This document shows positions 383 through 11,914 of a stretch of DNA of 64,000 nt, piece after piece (position 1 is the stretch's first letter; each line of letters starts with the position of its first letter). Origin of the DNA: Rhizodiscina lignyota (Eukaryota); assembly GCA_010015805.1 (NCBI GenBank), contig ML978124.1, positions 930,001-994,000 of the forward strand. Reading direction: 5' to 3'. A program made the translations under genes and the position numbers. The notes under the pieces are model-generated. The model made no database searches. It worked only from the letters and a program-made list of their open reading frames with translations, and was not told the origin of the DNA.

Positions 383-2721
383 ATGACGACTCTAATCACC
401 TCTCTCCTCAACCCTGTCGTCCGCAGATTCGCCTCCAACCCGCCCGGCGAGCAAGGTTCTGCAGCTCAGAGCGAAGAGTCGCAATCACATGTCAGAAGCG
501 TCGCAGGCGACGGCGACTTCGCTGTCGGAGCCCTGTCCGCCCACAACGACAGCGATGCTGGTGTACAGCTACCGGATAGCGAGCCGCACAATGTTCAATT
601 ACTGGAGAATAGGCTCAGCGAAGTAGAACCACATGGCGCCGTTGACCAGGCTGCTCCACGAGCAATCCCTCTAAATCCACGTGCGATTACTATACTTGGT
701 GGAGACGCTTCTGGAGTGCCGGTGGAACATGCGCATGCAGCGCTGTTTACTCAGTCACACGACATTTCCTCCGACCCTCAAATATTCGACCATGACCTCG
801 CTGTCGAACAGACCTCTTTCATTCCCTCGAGCGACCTCCACGACCCCATTAGTACGGCGCAGGACGATCGAAGCGCCACCTCTCCACCTTCTGGCGCTAT
901 TCCAATACAAGGAAGAGAAAGGCCAATATCTGCTGGAAGAGCAATGGCATTAGCTGGATCAGAAAGGCCAGCGTCGCTCCCGGCTGACGATGGCATGAGT
1001 GCTCTTCGAAAGAAGATCCACGAGATAAGAGACATGGCTGCATCCAGCGAGGAGAAGGCACGCCGTCTACACTTCATCATGACAGAGAGCTACATCGCAA
1101 ATCACCCCCACCTTGCTCGAGCCCAATCGCCAGCCAGCATTTTCTCAGGAGACAGACCGTTCACGCCTAGATCTCCCACTCCCTTCGATACTCCAGTGCT
1201 TCCTCACTCGCCCGACTCGATGCGCGAGCCTATCGATCCAGCAAACCCCTTCAATGTCACCGAGGCCGACAAGCAGCCCTGCTTTCGCCCACCTCGCTCC
1301 CGCCGTCCTTCCATCGATTACGATGACTATCCTCCGAATAGCGATGGCAATGAGGTACCTGAGCCGGAGGAACCGCAGCTGGGTTGCCGTCACTACAAAC
1401 GCAATGTCAAAATACAATGCTACGATTGTAGGCGATGGTATCCCTGCCGACACTGCCATGATGAAAAGGAGATGGATCATAGTTTGCAACGCAGAAAGAC
1501 CGAGAACATGCTCTGCATGCTATGCCAGACGCCGCAGAGCGCAGGTGAATACTGCAAAGTCTGTGAGCATAGGTCAGCGTACTATTATTGCGATATCTGC
1601 AAGTTGTGGGACGATGATGCAAGTAAGAGAATCTACCATTGTGCAGATTGCGGCATTTGCAGAAGAGGTGAGGGAATCGGAAAAGATTTCGTACACTGCA
1701 AGGTAAGATTCCATCTCTTCAAGACCATGAATATGCGCTCCGGGACTAATAAAGTCAGAAATGCAACATATGCATAGCGATTGCTTCTGCAGCTTCGCAT
1801 CGGTGCATCGAACGCGCGGCGGAGTGCGATTGTCCTATCTGCGGCGACTACATGTTTACTTCATCTTCCTCAATCGTAGCCATGCCCTGTGGACACTACC
1901 TCCACAAGACATGCTACACTCAATACATGGAGACTGCGTACAAATGCCCTATTTGCAAGAAGTCTGCAGTCAATATGGAGCTGCAATGGCGCAAGCTCGA
2001 GCACGCGATTGACACCCAACCGATGCCTGAGCAGTTCCGCAATACTCGAGTCGTGGTTCAGTGCAATGACTGCAGCGCAAAGAGCAGTGTGAAATACCAC
2101 TGGCTCGGAAACAAATGCGGGGCATGTGACAGCTACAACACAAATGAAGTGCAGATTCTCGGGCCAGCGTCGGAGAACGGAAACGCTGGCATCAATGCTC
2201 TGCTCGACCGTGCAGCAGATGCAAGAGCGAGCGTTGCTCCTAGTGGTACCTTTCGGACGCGCTTCGCTCCACCAGTGGTTAGAGCGCGCACACATCCTGC
2301 CTCCCCTCACACAGCCAATACTGGAGCACGAAGTCCGGGCTCGTACTTTCTCAGCGTGCAAGATTCGACCGTTGATACATCCGAGCGACGCGGCTCATTC
2401 GCGCAGAATATTCCGTTCTCGCCCCTCGAAATGTTCCATCGCGTCTCGCGCTCTCTCTCGCCTATCCGCCACTATTTGAACGGCTCGGACTCTGATGATG
2501 CCGATGGCGGCGATTATGCGGGCGATAGTGATGAGGATATTGAGTTTTGGGGTTCGGATGGGAGGTTCTTGTCGGGTGAAGGGGAGAGTGATGACGATTC
2601 CGATGAGGACACTGAAGAGGACGATGACGGGGATGACGAGGAGGAGACTGGTGATGAGAGAAGGGAGGAGCATGCTAGGAGGGAGCTGGATGAACTGGAT
2701 GAGCTCATCGGACATAGGTAG
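383..2721 (+). CDS. CHY zinc-finger / RING-H2 / zinc-ribbon E3 ligase (Pirh2/RCHY1-like)
   Basis: CHY motif GCRHYKRNVKIQCYDCRRWYPCRHCHDE. Intron 1703-1758 (GTAAGA...ACTAAT...TCAG) joins in frame to KCNICI...CPICGDYMF...PCGHYLHKTC...CPIC (RING) and CNDC...GNKCGACDSYNT (zinc ribbon), followed by an acidic tail. First in-frame ATG is at 383. Confidence 0.9.
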
Positions 2722-3035: not shown

Positions 3036-5633
3036 TCATGACCAAGCATCACCCCATCCCTCATCCTCTTCTTCCTCCTTCGGCTCCTCAGGCGGCTTCT
3101 TCACCTCGGCCGCCTTCTTCGCTGCCGCCGACGCTGCCGCGCCAGCAGCACCTCCAATAACGCTCTTCTTTGCGCCTATACTCGCTGTTGTCTTTGGCTT
3201 CGCGGTTGTGGTTGGCTTCGCCAGACCCTTCGGCAGCGGCTTCTTGCTTGCGCTCTTCGCGGCCGCTTGAGCATTCAGCCAGCCCGCAAAGTCGGGCTCG
3301 CCGCTGTCGTTGAAAGCCGCAGATGATGTTGTCTTGGTTGTTGCAAGTTTGGCCGCGGGTTCGCCCCACGGATCGTCTTCGGCCTCGTCGCCCCATGCGG
3401 CGCCGAAGTCTTCTGCTTCGGCCTCCTCGTCTGCTGAGAATGGATTGCTGCTGGTGCTAGGTCTCGACGATAAAGCCAAACCGCTCGGTACAGAGGGAGT
3501 TGCAGATGGCGTGAGTGTGCGCCCGAGTGGAGGACGTATATCTGTACTTGGGCGCGGAGGCACAGACGCAGACCGTTGCTCGCCTACTTGTGCGGCAGCG
3601 CCGTTCGTTACAGGTTGAATTTGGCCGCTAGCGGTGGCAAGTTTGTTCGTGAAGCTCGAGATTGCCCAGCCTGCCCAGCCGCCCGCATCTCCAGCTGGCG
3701 TGCCCATTCTTGGTGCATTTGCGTTGACGTTGGCGCCCGGGACATTGGTGTTCGGTGGTGGTAGCAAGGTCTCAGGTAAGGTGGTTTGATATTTTCGAAT
3801 GCGCTGCATATAGATTTCGAAGGTCTTGTTGGCTTGATCGCGGACGAGCCTTTCTTTGTCGACGAGGGAAGGGCAAATGGCGGGGAGCATTTTGGTTGCG
3901 CAATCGTCCTCAGAGAACAAGTCGGCGGTGGCAGCGAGGGCCATTAGACCTGCATTACGAGCATGAACGAAGGGATCGCGGAGGGAGCGGGCGAAGGCGG
4001 CGGTGAGGACTTTGGTACGTGTCTAGGATGTGTCTGTGAGCTTTTATTGCCGTCCAGGGTATAAGAGGAAATTGCTTACGGAATTTCCAAGATTGCGAGC
4101 TATCTTGCCTAAACATATGGTAGTGTTTGTTCTTATGCCCGGCTGCTCGTCGTTGGCAGTCTTTGCCAAGTGACGAAGGAGTTCGCCATTGACTGTGCGA
4201 TCGGACAGTTTGGGCACAACCGTCAGGATGGCTCTGACAGTCTGTTCGCGGACGACTGGCATGATATCGGCGAAGCCAGTGACCATTTGCGGAAAGATTT
4301 TGTCGTTTACTATCTTGTTGGGAAGGTGATCAATCATCAGAGGTAAGTTGTCGAGCAAGCATACTCGTATCGCTCGATCCGGGAGTGTAAAGAGGCGCAC
4401 AATGACAGGCGTTATTTGAGATTCATATTCCTCGTCCGTAAGTCTTTGTCCGATTTTCATGACGATGCCGAAGACCTTAGGGCCGCCACCACCGAACTCG
4501 ACGGATTTGAGGAGCTCAGGTAGGACTTTCATTTTCAGAAAGTCCTCGGGGAAGTCATCGCCAATATCATCTAGTTGGGCTAGAAACTCTTCTCTCTCTG
4601 TCTCGCTCTTAATACCTAAGCTTTCAATTCCTTCGGTGAGTGTGATTAAGGGCGTCTGAAAGAAACCTCCAACTCTTTGACCTTGCTCGAGGAACTGGGC
4701 GATACCTCTTCGCACTTTTGGATTTCCGTTGACTAGGTTCTTATAGCTCGCTTGCATACTCGGAGGGACACCTTTCGTTTGCCCTGCCTGATCAGGGCCC
4801 ATGAATGAGCCGTTGAAGACTTCAAAGACGAATATGCCGTAATCGTATGCATCGACTGCATGTAAGGGGTTGCGTTTGATCACCTCCCACCCAGATTTCG
4901 CGACTTCTGGAGGACAGTATCGGCCAGAGTCAGGCACAAGCGAACCGTGAGTGTAGATGATGGCATCGTCTTCGTTCATCGAACTCAAGACATCGAATCC
5001 TCCGAGCTTCCACTCGCCGCTTTCGCTCGTGAATACCGATGAGACCCGCAAGGCTCCATGGACGGACTTTGCATCGTTGTTGATGAACTTCATGGTTTTC
5101 TTTGGAAGGCATCAGCCCAGCGCCTGGTTGTACGAATGGATAGGAGTACGCACTGCGATACTGAATAGACCCCATTTGATCGTCTCCTCCGACAACGTCT
5201 TCCTCCGAACATGCCATGATAGCGGGACGAGGCGCTCTGTCGCTATGTATATGTATGTGTCTGTCTATAACATCTCAGCGTGCATGCCAGCAGTGCCTTG
5301 ACTCGGCCAACAATACCTCCACTGTATCAATTACTCGAATAACGCCTGGATGCCGTAGCGTTCGGAGCTTTCGCAGAGCATTGCGGGCGAGAGGAAGTCG
5401 GGACTTGTTCGCGACACAGTCAAAGGAGAATATGCTGCATTTCGAGCCATCTTCCTATATACAACATGTTAGTTATAGGCACAATGCTGGAGTAATTGTT
5501 CGGACAATACCCGTTTTGTGCCATTATAGAGCGTCCAAATTGACTGATCGATGTCGACACGGTCTCCGAAGCTGAAGCCGAAGGCTGGGCCCTTCGAAAT
5601 TGCGGACGCGACCGCAGATTTCAAGAAATCCAT
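3036..5633 (-). CDS. CEX1: SCY1-like pseudokinase with HEAT repeats (Cex1/SCYL1 family)
   Basis: Starts MDFLKSAVASAISKG at 5633. Introns at 5455-5510, ~5265-5316, ~5100-5153 and ~4023-4079. Kinase-like fold lacking catalytic motifs (VHGALRVSSVFTSESGEWKLGGF), HEAT region (ANDEQPGIRTNTTICLGKIA) and C-terminal GWGDAW. Confidence 0.88.
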
Positions 5634-6089: not shown

Positions 6090-6203
6090 TCGGCTTCATC
6101 AAGGTGTGCAAAATCTTTTCTCTTCTCTCCCATCCGAACAGAGCTACAATGATGCCTTACCTCTTAGACCGTCAAACACGACTTTCGTTCGACTGTCTTC
6201 CTA

Positions 6204-9200
6204 ATGGGCAACACACAGTCTAAAGAGCCGTCGGAGGATCTCGACACTTCTCTGAATGGGGATGCCATCTTTGAGAATGTAAGTGGTGTTTTCTTTCTCA
6301 CATGCCTTTCTAGACGATTCACTCGTTTGCTCCGCGGCTCGCCAATGATTAAACACTGGTAAAAGGGCTTATCGCACAAAAAGTATCTGTTGTGGTTCTC
6401 AAAAATCAGTCTGGCTCTTGGGGTGTGCTAGAAACCCCGTGGATGCGACCCCGCCGAGGGTTCGCAGGCTCTTGTTACAGAGCCACCCGCCTACCTCATC
6501 GGCGTCGTGGTTTAAAACAAGCGTACATCATACAATGCCCTACACTGGAGCTTCGAGCAGCCTCTCACCAGCTCGGAGCCAATGGCAGGGGCATACAGGC
6601 AGCGATTTTCCACTGTGTACAATCTTCGTGCCTGGTGGTTGCTCTACTGGTGTGTTTCTTCGCAAACCAAGTCGGGCTGATTGGAGAGAACCTGGAGATA
6701 TGCGAAATGAAGTTTATATAAACTGAAAAGACCTGAGGCACATTAGCCGCGGAGTTTGATTTCACATATGATTTGGCAGCATGACAGCTTAGAGATACAG
6801 ATTGCTAACACCGATTATTCCCTTACAGATCAATGAGCTCCGAGAAGACGCACTTAGACAGGTCTCTGCGGAAGATCCCGGAAGAGACGATGTCGGAACA
6901 GAGATGGATCCCTTAGTGCAAGTCACGAGACACCCAGTCTCCAATCCGTCGAGCACAAGGCCAAGATCAATATCACCACCGCCAACAAAGAGGCGACGCC
7001 TCGGAGCTACAGACTCATATTCGCCGTCGCTAAATCATTCCGCATCGTGGACACCAGACACACACCAATCTGAAGCTGAGGCTTATCGACCTGGTCCAGA
7101 TAAGGTCCGATTTACTGGAGAGCCTCATCGAGGCAGAGTCCATTCTGCCCAAAGTGGCTACACTCAAGATTTACCAACTTCGAGGCGAGGTTCAAGCATC
7201 TCCATAGACGAGAAGCTACCTCTTTCAAGCCCGCCAATCAGGAGCCAATCGAATGGCGGCTACCAAGATCGGCGTCAGGGCACAAACGTGATACATTCAA
7301 ACACGTTCAGCGATCCTCTCAGTGCCCTTGATCGCCACGACCAAGGTAATAACCCTGGTTTCGACTTCTCAAAAGTTCCGAGAGGACCATGGCGCGACAC
7401 TGTAACATTTGATGATCTCACAGACCCTCACATATTTATCACCTCGGAGACCGTCCCTGTCCTTTCCTCGACTGTGAAGCACCTCCGGGCCCTCTTCAAA
7501 AGACAATCGGTGATACCGAAACAGATCAAACTCGACCAAGACGGGTACTATGTGTTTTTCGAAAACAGCACGCAAGGTGTAGATGATTTGAGGAGATGTT
7601 TGGACAACTTTGATAGGAGATTGTTGTTCAATCAGTACGAGATGAGGATGAGATACATGCGAGGACGTCCCAAAACCACCTATCACCCCGGTCTCGATAA
7701 CTCTCCGTACAAAGTTCAATCGAACCCACCACCGGCTACCAAAGATGATCCTTTGCGTAGAGTTTCAGACAGAACCCCACAAATGAGCCCGATAGATTCA
7801 AACAGCAACTCGGTAGGAGCAGGTTTTACCGCTGGCGATCGGTCAAGGCCTGAACCAAATCCTCGTGGGAGATTAGCCAGCTCGTTCAAGCGAATTCCGG
7901 ATACAGGTTCGGATACAGTCTTAGAAGCGACCACAAGCACTATTCAGCAACCTACGACTGCTACAACTCTGGATCAGGAATACGATGTCGATTACAGAAG
8001 GGAGCTACACAACGGCGAAGTACTGCACTTGCCCTCTCAGAATTCCAACCAGGATCTGCCAGACAGAGTACCTGCCAGCATACCGGATGAGACATCGCGA
8101 CTAAAATCCGAAGCTATCAGGCGCCTGTCCATCCCTGATCATATCGGAGTTGAAGAAGGCCAGTCTTCTCCGAGATCTCTCACTCCTTCTGATATATCTT
8201 CGGCAACGGCACGCAAATACGAAAAGGAGTGCCACCGCTGCAAGCAGCCAGACCAGGCACATAATGCTTTCGTGAAGTGTGTGACATGCGTGCGGAGATT
8301 CCATGACGCATGTCGTGTACCTCCGCCTGGACCGAGTGACACTTTGACCACCTGGCAATGCAACCACTGCAAGAAGAAAGGCCGAGAGGTTCCCGTCGTG
8401 CAAGATAAGCGAGTACCTGAAAGCTCGAAAGCGACGCAACCACCTTCTGCACCGTCTTTGACTTTGCCTGAGCGGCTAGCATGGGATCAGTCTGAGGCCG
8501 AAGTGATGAATCTTGGTGAAGGAGAGGCTGAAACAACTGCAGGAGCGGAAGCGGAATTTACGGATGATCAAAGCGCAGCAATGAGTATCTCTGATGGTGT
8601 GTCTAAACAAATTGCGATTCCCAACCCTGTCCCTACAGATCTTACCCCAGCTCCAGCAACAGAGATGAGCGATGCACCCGTGGAGCCGCAAAAGAGCAAT
8701 CCGAAAGAAGTGGACACCGAATTAGGTGAAAACATTTCAAACGTAAACCCTGTTCCTACAGATCTTACACCAGCTCCAGCGACAGAGATGAGCGATGCAC
8801 CTATGAGCTTAGCTACTACACCGGCAACTCCCATGCTACCGGAGCCCATGCCACCGGAGCCGGAGCCATTCACTGATAACGAGATGGCCGACCCGAGGAA
8901 ACGTGGCAGAGCGAAGAAAACAAATATTCCAGTCGTGTCAACACGTAATTTGAATGCAACCCTTGATGGCGCCTCCAGTAGGGAATACGACTTGAGCAGT
9001 CCTTCCATCGATGATGCTACCCTCTTGGTGAATGCATCTTTCGCCATTGCCCAAAAAGAGCTTCCGTCCAGTTCTGGTAGAGGCACATCGAGTTCTCCCA
9101 CAAAGACGTCTACCCTCGGACAGTGCTCGAGTTGTGGAAAGAAGATGTTTCTGTGTAAGGCCGGAACTATTTGCGCTGCTTGCAAGAAGCGACAGGAAGA

Positions 9201-11914
9201 TATTGAAATGCAGGCGAAGATTCAGTCGGAAAAGGCAATAGTTGAGGCAGCCCCATCGATGAATCATCCGCTGCCGCAACAAATCCAGAGTGCGGGCTCA
9301 ACACCGCGTGATTTGCAGCAAGACAAGGGAAACCAGCCTCAGTTTGCTCTTCCTCAGAAACCTGCGGCAGTTTCAGAGACCCCGATGCTGGATTCGCTGG
9401 CGAAAGATGCTCAGAATGCGACTTCAATACTGAATGACGTGCTACAAGACAAGGGCAAGGAAAAACAGTCTCATCAGCCGACCCCCCTTCTCGAGCCTGC
9501 GCAGCGAATACCCAAGCGGATAACAAAGCGAGCTCCCTCGCAGACATCACGATCTACTGTGAAGCTTTCAGAAGCTTCAAAGTACTCAGGAGCTTCGAAG
9601 CCTTCAGAAGCTCCGAGGCCGTCAGAAGTTCTGGAGTCATCAGGAGCTCCGAAGCCGCTGGAAGCCCCAAAGCCTTCAAAAGCTCCGAGGCCGCCAGAAA
9701 CCTCGAAGCCTTCAGAAGCCCCAAAACCTTCGGAAGCCACAAAGCCTCTTGTCGGGTCAGTACTTTCCAAACCTCATCTTGAGCCTGCCGCAGAGATTGT
9801 TGAACCTCCTCCTCGTGATGTGAATCAGCGACAAAACTTCCAAAGTGAAACATTAGAGACTCCCATTGTCGAGACCAGCATGGACTCAACTACAGATCAC
9901 GTACTCTCTCAAACTACTGGCATTATTCCGAGCGGATCTCAGTCATTCAAGCCAACCATTTCCAAGGAAGTGACAGCAGCTGTACCCATCTCAGAGTCTC
10001 ATTCATCGAATGAAGTAGCGAACAGTCCATCAACTACTGTACCAGCTCCAAAGGATCCTATCACACGGTCACCACTGGCGCTTCGTCTAACCAGGAATCC
10101 CGAGGATGTCTTCCAAGGCCGAGTTTCGGGACCTATCCATCAAGCGCTCGCGGCTATGGCAGATAGTGAACTAACGATTGCCTTTCGGATATTAAATGAT
10201 ACACCTGAGGCAAGAGACAACATTCAAACATTCCGGAACTGCTTAGATGCTTTCGCCAGAGCGCAAACAGCCGATGATGAAGCTGACGCTACGCAAGCCG
10301 GTATGCGCACGGCTGAACCGCAGAATCGCGGCAGCAACGCCTCAAACGCCTTGGTAACCGATTCAGATGTGTCCAACTCCAGGCGACCAAAAGAAATTAA
10401 TCACAGGCCCAATCTAAGTGGCCAGGAATCAACACGCTCAACACAGTCTGCGATCAACCAATCAAACGAGTCTGAGAAGATCACCGCCCAAGCCAATGAT
10501 GGCAATGTTGCACAGTCACAGTATGTGGATTCAGACGAAGCCCCAAACCAACGCTTGCCCCGGCACTTTTCTCTCTCACAAGTCTGTGCACTCGCACTTC
10601 TTAGCACTCCAAGCCGAAGACTATCGCATCCCCAAATTTGCAATTGGATTTCCTCACAAAACTTGTTCAAATATAGATCAAGTGACCCTACAAAGTGGAA
10701 GACTAGCATGAGCGCTATTTTAAGCGGGAATGTGAATTTTGAGCGAACCCCTGCGATGCCCGGCGACGACGGTTACGCATTCTATACGTTTGTGAAGGGT
10801 AAGGCGAAGGACTTCAAACACCTCAATCCTAAGGAGGGCCAGGTGGAGGAGGGAGCAACAGCAAGCCAGTCACTTCTTGGCAGCCCTGTGTCAAAGAAGA
10901 CGACCTTAAAATCACCAAAAGAAGCTTCGACAGAACAGAACCACAGGGGTCGAACATCAGAGCTCCGTCGGGATGCAGTAGATTCCAGTTCATCGCCTGT
11001 TCGCCATCGGATCAAGCCCACGCGCAAAACCACCGCTCAAACTACGTCGAGTCGAGTTGAAACACAATTGTTGGAGCGTTCGTCCGATGCAGAAGTCGAA
11101 CAACAGCGCGGTCAAAAGAGACTTCGACGATTCAGTCCTCGTCATGACGATGATGTCGACATGGAGGAAGCGCCGAATTCGGCCGAGCGTGCCTCCAGGC
11201 CAACCGGCAGACAGAATGTCGCATCTCACTACGATGGCTATCCTACAATTGATGAAATGATTGCTCGTCATGTCCCAGTCGAGGACCATCTCTGGAACCT
11301 GTCCGACTCTGATGATGCCTTCAATCCTTTTGAGGAACGCCCTTCCTCTGAAGACGGCGATGACGAGTTGCTCGCGCTTATCGACTCCAATGATGAGAAG
11401 GCTGAGTTCGAGGACAAAGATCTGTTCGCTGTTCGGCCGGAACTTCATCCCGATGTGGTGTTACTCGACTTCGAAGCTAGGAGACAAGAAATCGAAGCGC
11501 GTCCCACTCGCAAGCAGTTGAATGGCCATTTCGATCCTGTGCCTCGAGCCGATGTCCAAGAGAAATACGGAGTGCTGCCTCACCGCGTCCGTGGCAAACA
11601 AAAAGAGATCGAGCTTCCGGTGTTGGAAGACGATGATCTGGGCAACTTGGGAGGCGATGAGGCTGCCCGTCCGCGGAGTGAGCGCTGGAAGGTCGTGAAT
11701 ACGATTGAGGATGCGTTTGAACTGCCTGATGATATGATCAAGTTCACGTACGAAGGGCAGCTGGCCTGGAGAGATGGAACTAGAGTATGAGTGCTCTCTC
11801 TGACTATATTTGACTTCTACTGACCATCTATAACAGGTGAACGGAGAGTTGCCGAGGCCAAAGACTGTGTACAAAGTTGGTCGGGTTGAGGAGTCGCGTA
11901 CACGGTCGAAGTGA
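6204..11914 (+). CDS. Large chromatin-type protein: Set1-associated RRM-like (SET_assoc) domain, PHD finger and forkhead/winged-helix-like domain; no SET domain
   Basis: Exon 1 (6204-6278, MGNTQSKEP...FEN) joins in phase 0 across intron 6279-6828 (GTAAGT...GCTAAC...TACAG) to the 1662-aa ORF. Last intron 11785-11836, stop at 11912-11914. PHIFITSETVPVLSSTVKHL...DQDGYYVFFE...LLFNQYEMRM resembles SET_assoc; CHRC...CVTCVRRFHDAC...WQCNHC is a PHD finger; SLSQVCALAL...LSHPQICNWI...WKTSMSAILS...FER resembles a forkhead domain. Confidence 0.75.
6341..6739 (+). ncRNA. Intron-encoded box C/D (possibly composite C/D-H/ACA) scaRNA-like guide RNA; predicted targets U5 Um41 and U2 Um47
   Basis: Terminal stem GCC/GGC plus a perfect 10-bp outer stem CTCCGCGGCT (6330-6339) / AGCCGCGGAG (6745-6754). 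C box ATGATTA 6345-6351; guide CTGGTAAAAGG 6356-6366; D' CTTA 6368-6371; C' ATGAAGT 6707-6713; guide TAAACTGAAAAGA 6719-6731; D box CTGA 6733-6736. Confidence 0.8.
8623..8802 (+). repeat. Intragenic duplication of ~57 nt (NPVPTDLTPAPATEMSDAP twice)
   Basis: Copies at 8623-8679 and 8746-8802 differ only at synonymous positions. Confidence 0.9.
9562..9747 (+). repeat. Degenerate 18-nt coding tandem repeat (EAPKPS-like hexapeptide, ~10 copies)
   Basis: Recurrent AAGCCTTCAGAAGC(T/C)CC units encoding SEASKYSGASKPSEAPRPSE...PSEAPKPSEATKP. Confidence 0.8.

Follow-up and report, generated by a model that had tools for sequence, protein, structure and literature searches.

A long intron of the fungus Rhizodiscina lignyota probably encodes a dual-guide box C/D RNA of about 400 to 425 nucleotides (nt), which would act on the U5 and U2 small nuclear RNAs (snRNAs) by the mechanism proposed below. 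The intron lies in a stretch of 64,000 nt of contig ML978124.1 (assembly GCA_010015805.1), referred to here as the window, and positions are those of the window unless a metagenome locus is named. The presence of an intronic C/D element, noted in a preliminary description made from the letters alone, was confirmed, and its interpretation there as a dual-guide box C/D RNA is supported by sequence comparison. To judge from its relatives, the element belongs to a conserved, undescribed family of long intronic RNAs, putatively of the dual-guide box C/D kind, that occurs in genomes of filamentous ascomycete type. The observations behind this reading are the motifs themselves, their conservation, the covariation of the stems, the position within introns, synteny and absence from Rfam.

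As described previously, the host intron spans positions 6279-6828 of the forward strand (550 nt). Its splice signals and in-frame exon junction could be read in the sequence: it begins with GTAAGT, carries the branch motif GCTAAC at 6804-6809, ends with the acceptor CAG at 6826-6828 and links a first exon of 25 codons in frame with an open reading frame of 1653 codons. Every motif listed in the preliminary description was found by direct reading at the coordinates given there (Table 1). The window copy has CUGA near its 3' end and a terminal stem that joins the two ends of the RNA. Its internal D' and C' boxes are brought together by four nested helices, P1 to P4 (5' strands within 6372-6411, 3' strands within 6675-6705), of which P1 directly flanked both boxes in 7/7 sequences. 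A single G separates the first antisense element from the D' box, and a single C separates the second from the D box. The fold of 6330-6754 was better than that of all 100 shuffled sequences (z = -5.0). The antisense 11-mer was observed once in the 64-kb window, here, against an expectation of 0.02, and the antisense 13-mer, with at most one mismatch, was likewise observed only here against an expectation of 0.04.

Relatives of the element were collected from metagenome contigs with one pattern, consisting of the C box TGATKA, 2-8 nt, CTGGTAAAAGG, 0-3 nt and CTKA. The scan returned 62 loci, comprising 12 long-form loci, 3 short-form loci and 47 apparently unrelated loci that by eye were bacterial or phage-like coding sequence. 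The long-form loci were divided into group A (L005, L014 and L036, the last of which ends 183 nt past the match), group B (L008, L026, L027 and L018, which equals L056 and L061) and group C (L030, L031 and L054). The sequence ACUGAAAAGA-[C/U]-CUGA was found on the same strand, 360-670 nt downstream, in 11/11 long-form loci of sufficient length; besides the long-form loci, this downstream 11-mer occurred in one locus, L044, on the opposite strand. Since the second antisense element, the D and C' boxes, the stems and the interior were absent from the query, their recurrence counts as independent evidence. The same pattern matched 4 chance-like loci in a viral collection, with the second antisense element in 0/4, and a U2-type motif had no match in that collection.

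The comparison across orthologues that had been called for previously was made on these metagenomic sequences, in which the boxes, both antisense elements and the 1-nt spacing before D' and D were kept and the stems covaried. The spacers were fixed at 4 nt between the C box and the first antisense element, 1 nt between that element and D', and 1 nt between the second element and D. Within the U2 element, ACUGAAAAGA was invariant and was mostly preceded by A-A. Outside the conserved features, mean column identity of the alignment was 47%. The terminal stem, P1, P3 and both stems of an internal hairpin followed by ACA, described below, were paired in 7/7 distinct sequences, with different letters. 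Thus, the terminal stem reads GCC/GGC in the window, CGGUUUC/GAUACCG (6/7 pairs) in group A, ACC/GGU and GAGCC/GGCU[U/C] in group B, and AAUGGCUGC/GCAGCCAUU in group C. P1, flanking D' and C', appeared as UCGCA/UGCGA, CUGCA/UGCAG and [C/U]UUGUCA/UG[A/G]CAGG, and P3 as GGUUCUC/GAGAACC, GGUUCUCG/CGGGAGCC, GGUCC/GAACC (4/5 pairs) and UGGUUCUU/GAGAACUA.

The distance from the D box to the branch-point motif was 62-68 nt in 6/6 long-form sequences whose flank reaches that far, L026 being cut. Intron-processed C/D RNAs typically keep such a fixed distance. For this relation, the Neurospora crassa study refers to Hirose and Steitz 2001 and to Vincenti et al. A 5' splice site was found by script 66-108 nt before the C box in 4 sequences, GTAAAT was read by eye at about -68 in L018 and L026, and no 5' splice site was seen in L030. 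The gene upstream of the host gene, of SCY1-like pseudokinase type, has a syntenic counterpart at L005, L014 and L036 (63-78% amino acid identity) and at L018, L056 and L061 (50-64%). This shared neighbour indicates that at least those loci are orthologous, and fairly diverged. The upstream exon in group B looks non-coding, so the intron there may sit in the 5' untranslated region.

Box C/D RNAs direct methylation to the target nucleotide that lies opposite the fifth position upstream of either box, D or D'. The target segments compared were CCUUUUACCAG of U5, which we take to be loop 1 of yeast-type U5, and UCUUUUCAGUUUA of U2; yeast-type U5 presumably has ACC where that of vertebrates has ACU. 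By this rule, the element upstream of D' selects the second U of CCUUUU in U5 loop 1, and for the element upstream of D the selected nucleotide is the fourth U of UCUUUU in U2. These sites had been placed earlier at the positions of 2'-O-methylated U41 (Um41) of human U5 and Um47 of human U2, in agreement with the table of a review that assigns Um41 to scaRNA5/6 and Um47 to scaRNA28, two designations of small RNAs specific to Cajal bodies (scaRNAs). The yeast-type U2 letters, UUUUCA after GUAUCUGU-NN, were taken from the guide design in the methods section of Deryusheva and Gall 2017. The four nt 5' of CUGG differed in each lineage (AACA, CAGA, UCAC and CUUU), which gives a U5 duplex of 11 base pairs (bp), or, in the homologues, 12 if a G-U pair is counted; an extension of the pairing to GUG, raised as a possibility in the preliminary description, found no support. 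From these pairings, the RNA most likely directs methylation of both U5 and U2.

We propose that, after splicing, exonucleases would trim the intron as far as the terminal stem and kink-turn and so free the RNA, a route suggested by the 62-68 nt before the branch point together with that stem. That the RNA is expressed, which proteins it binds, its two targets and whatever activity the ACA hairpin may have are inferences. With Snu13, Nop56, Nop58 and the methyltransferase Nop1/fibrillarin, the RNA would form a two-site ribonucleoprotein particle (RNP). The D'-side element would pair with U5 loop 1 and bring the second U of CCUUUU (human U41) into the active site, and the D-side element would pair with U2 just 3' of the branch-point-recognition sequence and bring the fourth U of UCUUUU (human U47) into the active site. 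D' and C' are held together by the conserved stem, with the long insertion beyond it.

The insertion between D' and C' is about 330 nt long and forms a long imperfect rod ending in two hairpins. The preliminary description correctly identified the helices that join D' with C', but treated the interior as a connector and missed an H/ACA-like domain. The second hairpin has covarying lower and upper stems, a conserved two-sided internal loop and, directly after the lower stem, an invariant ACA in variable context. The upper stem and the ACA were exactly 15 nt apart in 8/8 sequences, as 8+7 or 7+8. Together with the two-sided loop, this spacing gives the geometry of an H/ACA pseudouridylation hairpin, in which 14-16 nt lie between ACA and the upper stem's base. 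The conserved loop strands read ..A[U/C]GGA (5') and CAA[U/C]GGC(A/G) (3'), and the U/C variation is what would be expected if these positions paired with a target G. In group C (L030, L031 and L054), the upper stem carries, and evidently tolerates, an insertion of 293 nt. SNORA79, an H/ACA model, was the sole Rfam match at E<=10 over 6440-6640; its alignment ran end to end through hairpin, ACAUCA hinge, hairpin and ACA, at a non-significant score (15.4 bits, gathering 55, E = 2.6). These features suggest, with somewhat less than even confidence on our part, that the dual-guide RNA is a composite whose interior is a working H/ACA domain binding Cbf5-Nop10-Nhp2-Gar1, like vertebrate U85/U87/U88, and jointly that the conserved internal loop serves as its pseudouridylation pocket.

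Several observations argue against an H/ACA domain of this kind. The SNORA79 match is non-significant and L026 gave no H/ACA match in Rfam. The window and group B each have two hairpins, and the hinge sequences ACAUCA (window) and ACAUAA (group C) fit the H box ANANNA, but the H box is not conserved, none having been found by eye in groups A and B, and the first hairpin of the window has no pocket. A covariance model of the ACA hairpin built from group B found the window weakly (E = 0.024) and missed groups A and C, and antisense self-matches scored alike. The ACA is internal, being followed by about 100 further nt of the RNA, with the D box about 140 nt away, and not three nt from the 3' end of the RNA; in the H/ACA domain of vertebrate composite scaRNAs the ACA is likewise internal. 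No convincing target for the internal loop was found by hand among U5 loop 1 and the guide-implied U2 segment: with U5 loop 1, the pairing required a U-U mismatch at its centre and comprised only 2-5 bp on its other side, and the U2 segment did not fit. A kink-turn reading of the internal loop was also rejected, with GA by the upper stem on one strand and GG after a 4-nt bulge on the other. As to the sequence elements of scaRNAs, the CAB box UGAG was not found in the loops of the ACA hairpin (UGAG occurs elsewhere), and a long UG-repeat element was not found, the longest UG/GU run being 4-6 nt.

Two repeats were seen within the interior. At 2233-2566 (forward strand) of L030, L031 and L054, the loop motifs recur in miniature inside the insertion of group C, as AUGGAGCU ... 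CAAUGGGG. ACA; this points to an internal duplication. In the window, (A/C)UGG recurs at 6392-6397, 6544-6549 and 6581-6586, that is, once ahead of P3 and once in each loop strand of the ACA hairpin, and these occurrences are conserved; in groups B and C, (A/C)UGG is also found in the first hairpin (CAUGGAG). This recurrence could reflect a protein-binding motif or old duplications.

A number of points weigh against the interpretation of the window element as an active dual-guide RNA for U5 and U2. Its C box is AUGAUUA and its D' box CUUA, as opposed to UGAUGA in 15/15 and CUGA in 14/15 metagenome homologues, under a pattern that allowed variants of both. The U in the C box loses the G-C pair of stem II, and RNP assembly could thus be weaker. 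Conservation of the U5 antisense element was built into the search and so gives no independent support. The target letters are those expected of yeast-type snRNAs, or were derived from SCARNA6 or from the guide design of one paper, which leaves pairing with the host's own U2 and U5 a prediction, and the target comparison covered U5 and U2 segments only. Because global alignment with MAFFT misregisters the interior, helix strands were assigned by hand, with pairing and order checked by script. Finally, there are only four lineages, too few for a statistical test of covariation such as R-scape.

The altered boxes raise the question of whether the family is real but the window copy decaying or inactive, kept only as intron structure after losing the consensus letters of C and D'. 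The preliminary description had given the letters of both boxes correctly and overlooked their degenerate state. The letters recurred in a contig built from reads of run X1, the only run containing this stretch, with 0 differences over 6250-6850; since this run may be the assembly's own source, the match rules out a copying error only. By contrast, the window retains intact C' and D boxes, both antisense elements, every stem, the ACA hairpin and the branch-point distance, amid flanking intron sequence that could not be aligned. Working small nucleolar RNAs often have degenerate D' boxes. In addition, the perfect 10-bp outer stem, which had no equivalent by eye in the homologues and is known from the window's lineage only, may make up for a weaker kink-turn. 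As nothing but these two boxes is altered, we consider an inactive copy improbable.

More improbable still is that the element is a genuine box C/D RNA directed at rRNA or other targets, its matches to U5 and U2 being coincidental. Such a reading could draw on a target comparison confined to U5 and U2 segments and on N. crassa CD29 and CD11, C/D RNAs that according to that study address both ribosomal RNA (rRNA) and snRNA. However, neither of the two separate antisense elements (11 and 10-13 nt) varies between lineages, each stands in register with a human snRNA site that is 2'-O-methylated, and the first is common to the SCARNA6 consensus. A chance grouping of motifs in a long intron, which the shortness of the boxes and their imperfect form in the window might suggest, conflicts with the low expected counts of both antisense elements and is refuted by conservation, the element recurring with synteny at 12 loci that represent three other lineages; its probability is negligible.

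The three short-form loci (L039:1146-1244, forward strand; L065, about 708-810, forward strand; and L017, minus strand, about 1041 in the reversed frame) are about 100-150 nt long. They share the module of C box, CUGGUAAAAGG and D' and have a terminal stem and D box of their own. The U2 element is missing from them, the second guide being different or absent, as is the ACA hairpin. Short and long forms together show two architectures or more for the U5 loop-1 guide. On the opposite strand of L039 (1366-1426), some 120 nt away from its short RNA, a weak match to SNORD94 below the gathering score (22.6 bits, E = 0.035) may mark another C/D RNA.

The host protein of 1679 amino acids is largely low-complexity and had matches to the SET_assoc, PHD and Forkhead families. 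Its N-terminus, MGNTQSK, is a possible myristoylation signal. No homology to the host protein was found inside the 2-kb flanks of the homologous loci.

Table 1. Positions of the RNA, its parts and the adjoining genes in the 64,000-nt window
Feature	Sequence	Position	Strand	Remarks
SCY1-like pseudokinase-type gene		4044-5111	-	Upstream, divergent, head to head with host gene
Host gene		exons 6204-6278 + 6829-11790	+	1679-amino acid product
Outer stem	CTCCGCGGCT / AGCCGCGGAG	6330-6339 / 6745-6754	+	Perfect 10 bp; read directly
Terminal stem adjoining boxes	GCC / GGC	6341-6343 / 6737-6739	+	Stem kept in 7/7 distinct sequences, letters differ
C box	AUGAUUA (DNA ATGATTA)	6345-6351	+	U replaces the G of consensus RUGAUGA that pairs with D-box C
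Antisense element 1	CUGGUAAAAGG (DNA CTGGTAAAAGG)	6356-6366	+	Complementary to CCUUUUACCAG
D' box	CUUA (DNA CTTA)	6368-6371	+	CUGA in 14/15 homologues
Helix P1	TCGCA / TGCGA	6372-6376 / 6701-6705	+	Read directly, fold, cross-lineage check
Helix P2	TATCT / AGATA	6384-6388 / 6696-6700	+	Read directly, fold, cross-lineage check
Helix P3	GGTTCTC / GAGAACC	6394-6400 / 6686-6692	+	Read directly, fold, cross-lineage check
Helix P4	AATCAGTC / GGCTGATT	6404-6411 / 6675-6682	+	One G-U pair; read directly, fold, cross-lineage check
First internal hairpin	CUCUUGUU ... AACAAGCG	6469-6523	+	Fold, SNORA79 alignment
H-box-like sequence	ACAUCA	6525-6530	+	Hinge after first hairpin; not conserved in group B by eye
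ACA hairpin, lower stem		6535-6541 / 6588-6594	+	7-8 bp across sequences
ACA hairpin, internal loop	ACACUGGA / CAAUGGCA	6542-6549 / 6580-6587	+	
ACA hairpin, upper stem		6550-6558 / 6571-6579	+	Covarying
ACA	ACA	6595-6597	+	Invariant, directly after lower stem, in variable context
C' box	AUGAAGU (DNA ATGAAGT)	6707-6713	+	Family consensus nUGA[A/C]Gn
Antisense element 2	UAAACUGAAAAGA (DNA TAAACTGAAAAGA)	6719-6731	+	Complementary to UCUUUUCAGUUUA, yeast-type U2
D box	CUGA (DNA CTGA)	6733-6736	+	Read directly

In animals, guided methylation is known for U5 loop 1 and for the part of U2 that adjoins the branch-point-recognition sequence. If the proposed guide RNA is confirmed, filamentous fungi would offer a tractable genetic handle on two conserved snRNA modifications, because both guides lie in one intron and a single intron deletion would remove both. 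Confirmation would also mean that very long, domain-bearing C/D RNAs are not restricted to animals, and would raise the idea that composite C/D-H/ACA RNAs are ancient. The broader proposition, that this is the fungal counterpart of the animal composite scaRNAs, with a C/D module homologous to that of U87/U88, the function of SCARNA28 and a working H/ACA hairpin in one intronic RNA, is possible but in our judgement rather unlikely. If it were true, both the composite C/D-H/ACA design and the use of a guide to modify U5 loop 1 would be older than the split between fungi and animals, and the conserved pocket would specify a pseudouridine in spliceosomal or ribosomal RNA.

The search of Rfam that had been suggested for the element identified no family for it. 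No match was found in the whole window at the gathering scores of Rfam 15, and a lax scan of 6200-6900 returned only an antisense match to SNORA21 (E = 0.1). On the homologues, SCARNA6 (RF00478) gave the only same-strand matches, all below its gathering score of 68 bits (20.5, 17.8 and 16.1 bits); the window had none. The highest of these scores, 20.5 bits, belonged to L039, a short form. In the literature searched, no fungal RNA was found that guides modification of either the U5 loop-1 U or the U2 site, a search that did not extend to supplementary tables, where the family could be listed. The main text of the fungal snoRNAome paper contains no mention of 'U5 snRNA', and a text search of the literature for the guide and target letters returned primers only. 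The lack of an earlier report is explained by the length of the RNA, since SnoBIRD, a current predictor, discards C/D RNAs >164 nt and screens of complementary DNA are recorded to have found RNAs of roughly 70-130 nt.

Fungal C/D guides for snRNA methylation are known at other sites. As given in the respective studies, N. crassa CD29 (SCARNA9-like) is intronic with two guides, one for U2-Am31 that was verified by primer extension, CD24 is assigned to U5-Am62, CD26 to U2-Gm183 and CD11 to U6. CD29 documents that a C/D RNA can guide internal 2'-O-methylation of an snRNA in Pezizomycotina. Aspergillus fumigatus Afu-191, also SCARNA9-like, is assigned to U2-Am32 in a study that reports none for U1, U5 or U6, and guides of Trichophyton rubrum are listed for U5-Cm103, U2-Um43, U2-Am155 and U1-Cm45. 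Schizosaccharomyces pombe mgU6-47 is cited as an snRNA guide in the N. crassa paper. The element resembles CD29, Afu-191 and mgU6-47 in being a putative fungal C/D guide for snRNA methylation; unlike it, these are RNAs of 92-101 nt that address other sites and have no internal structured domain.

Among vertebrate RNAs, SCARNA10 (U85) joins an H/ACA hairpin to a guide for U5 loop-1 methylation in one RNA, although the nucleotide methylated is a different one (Cm45, with pseudouridine at Psi46, in the review's table) and no U5 target was found for the fungal hairpin. SCARNA28 (mgU2-47) is intron-encoded like the fungal RNA and shares with it the predicted site U2 Um47. SCARNA28 is a separate short RNA in vertebrates, whereas the fungal U2 guide shares its RNA with the U5 guide.

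A close resemblance in arrangement is to SCARNA5/SCARNA6 (U87/U88). Vertebrate U85/U87/U88 are said, in work attributed to Darzacq et al. 2002, to carry an H/ACA domain between D' and C'. Several differences separate the fungal RNA from SCARNA5/SCARNA6. Its first antisense element has G in place of the consensus a, which presumably fits ACC and not ACU in U5; its interior is larger, the H box is not conserved and the hairpin loops have no UGAG; and its D element is predicted to target U2, not U4. If the H/ACA reading is right, its layout would presumably be that of vertebrate U85/U87/U88, with C, U5 guide, D', H/ACA, C', guide and D in this order. The SCARNA6 consensus UGAUGAa-UaGUAAAAGG-U-CUGA has the same module of C box, antisense element and D' in the same register, and with it the same predicted site, U5 Um41.

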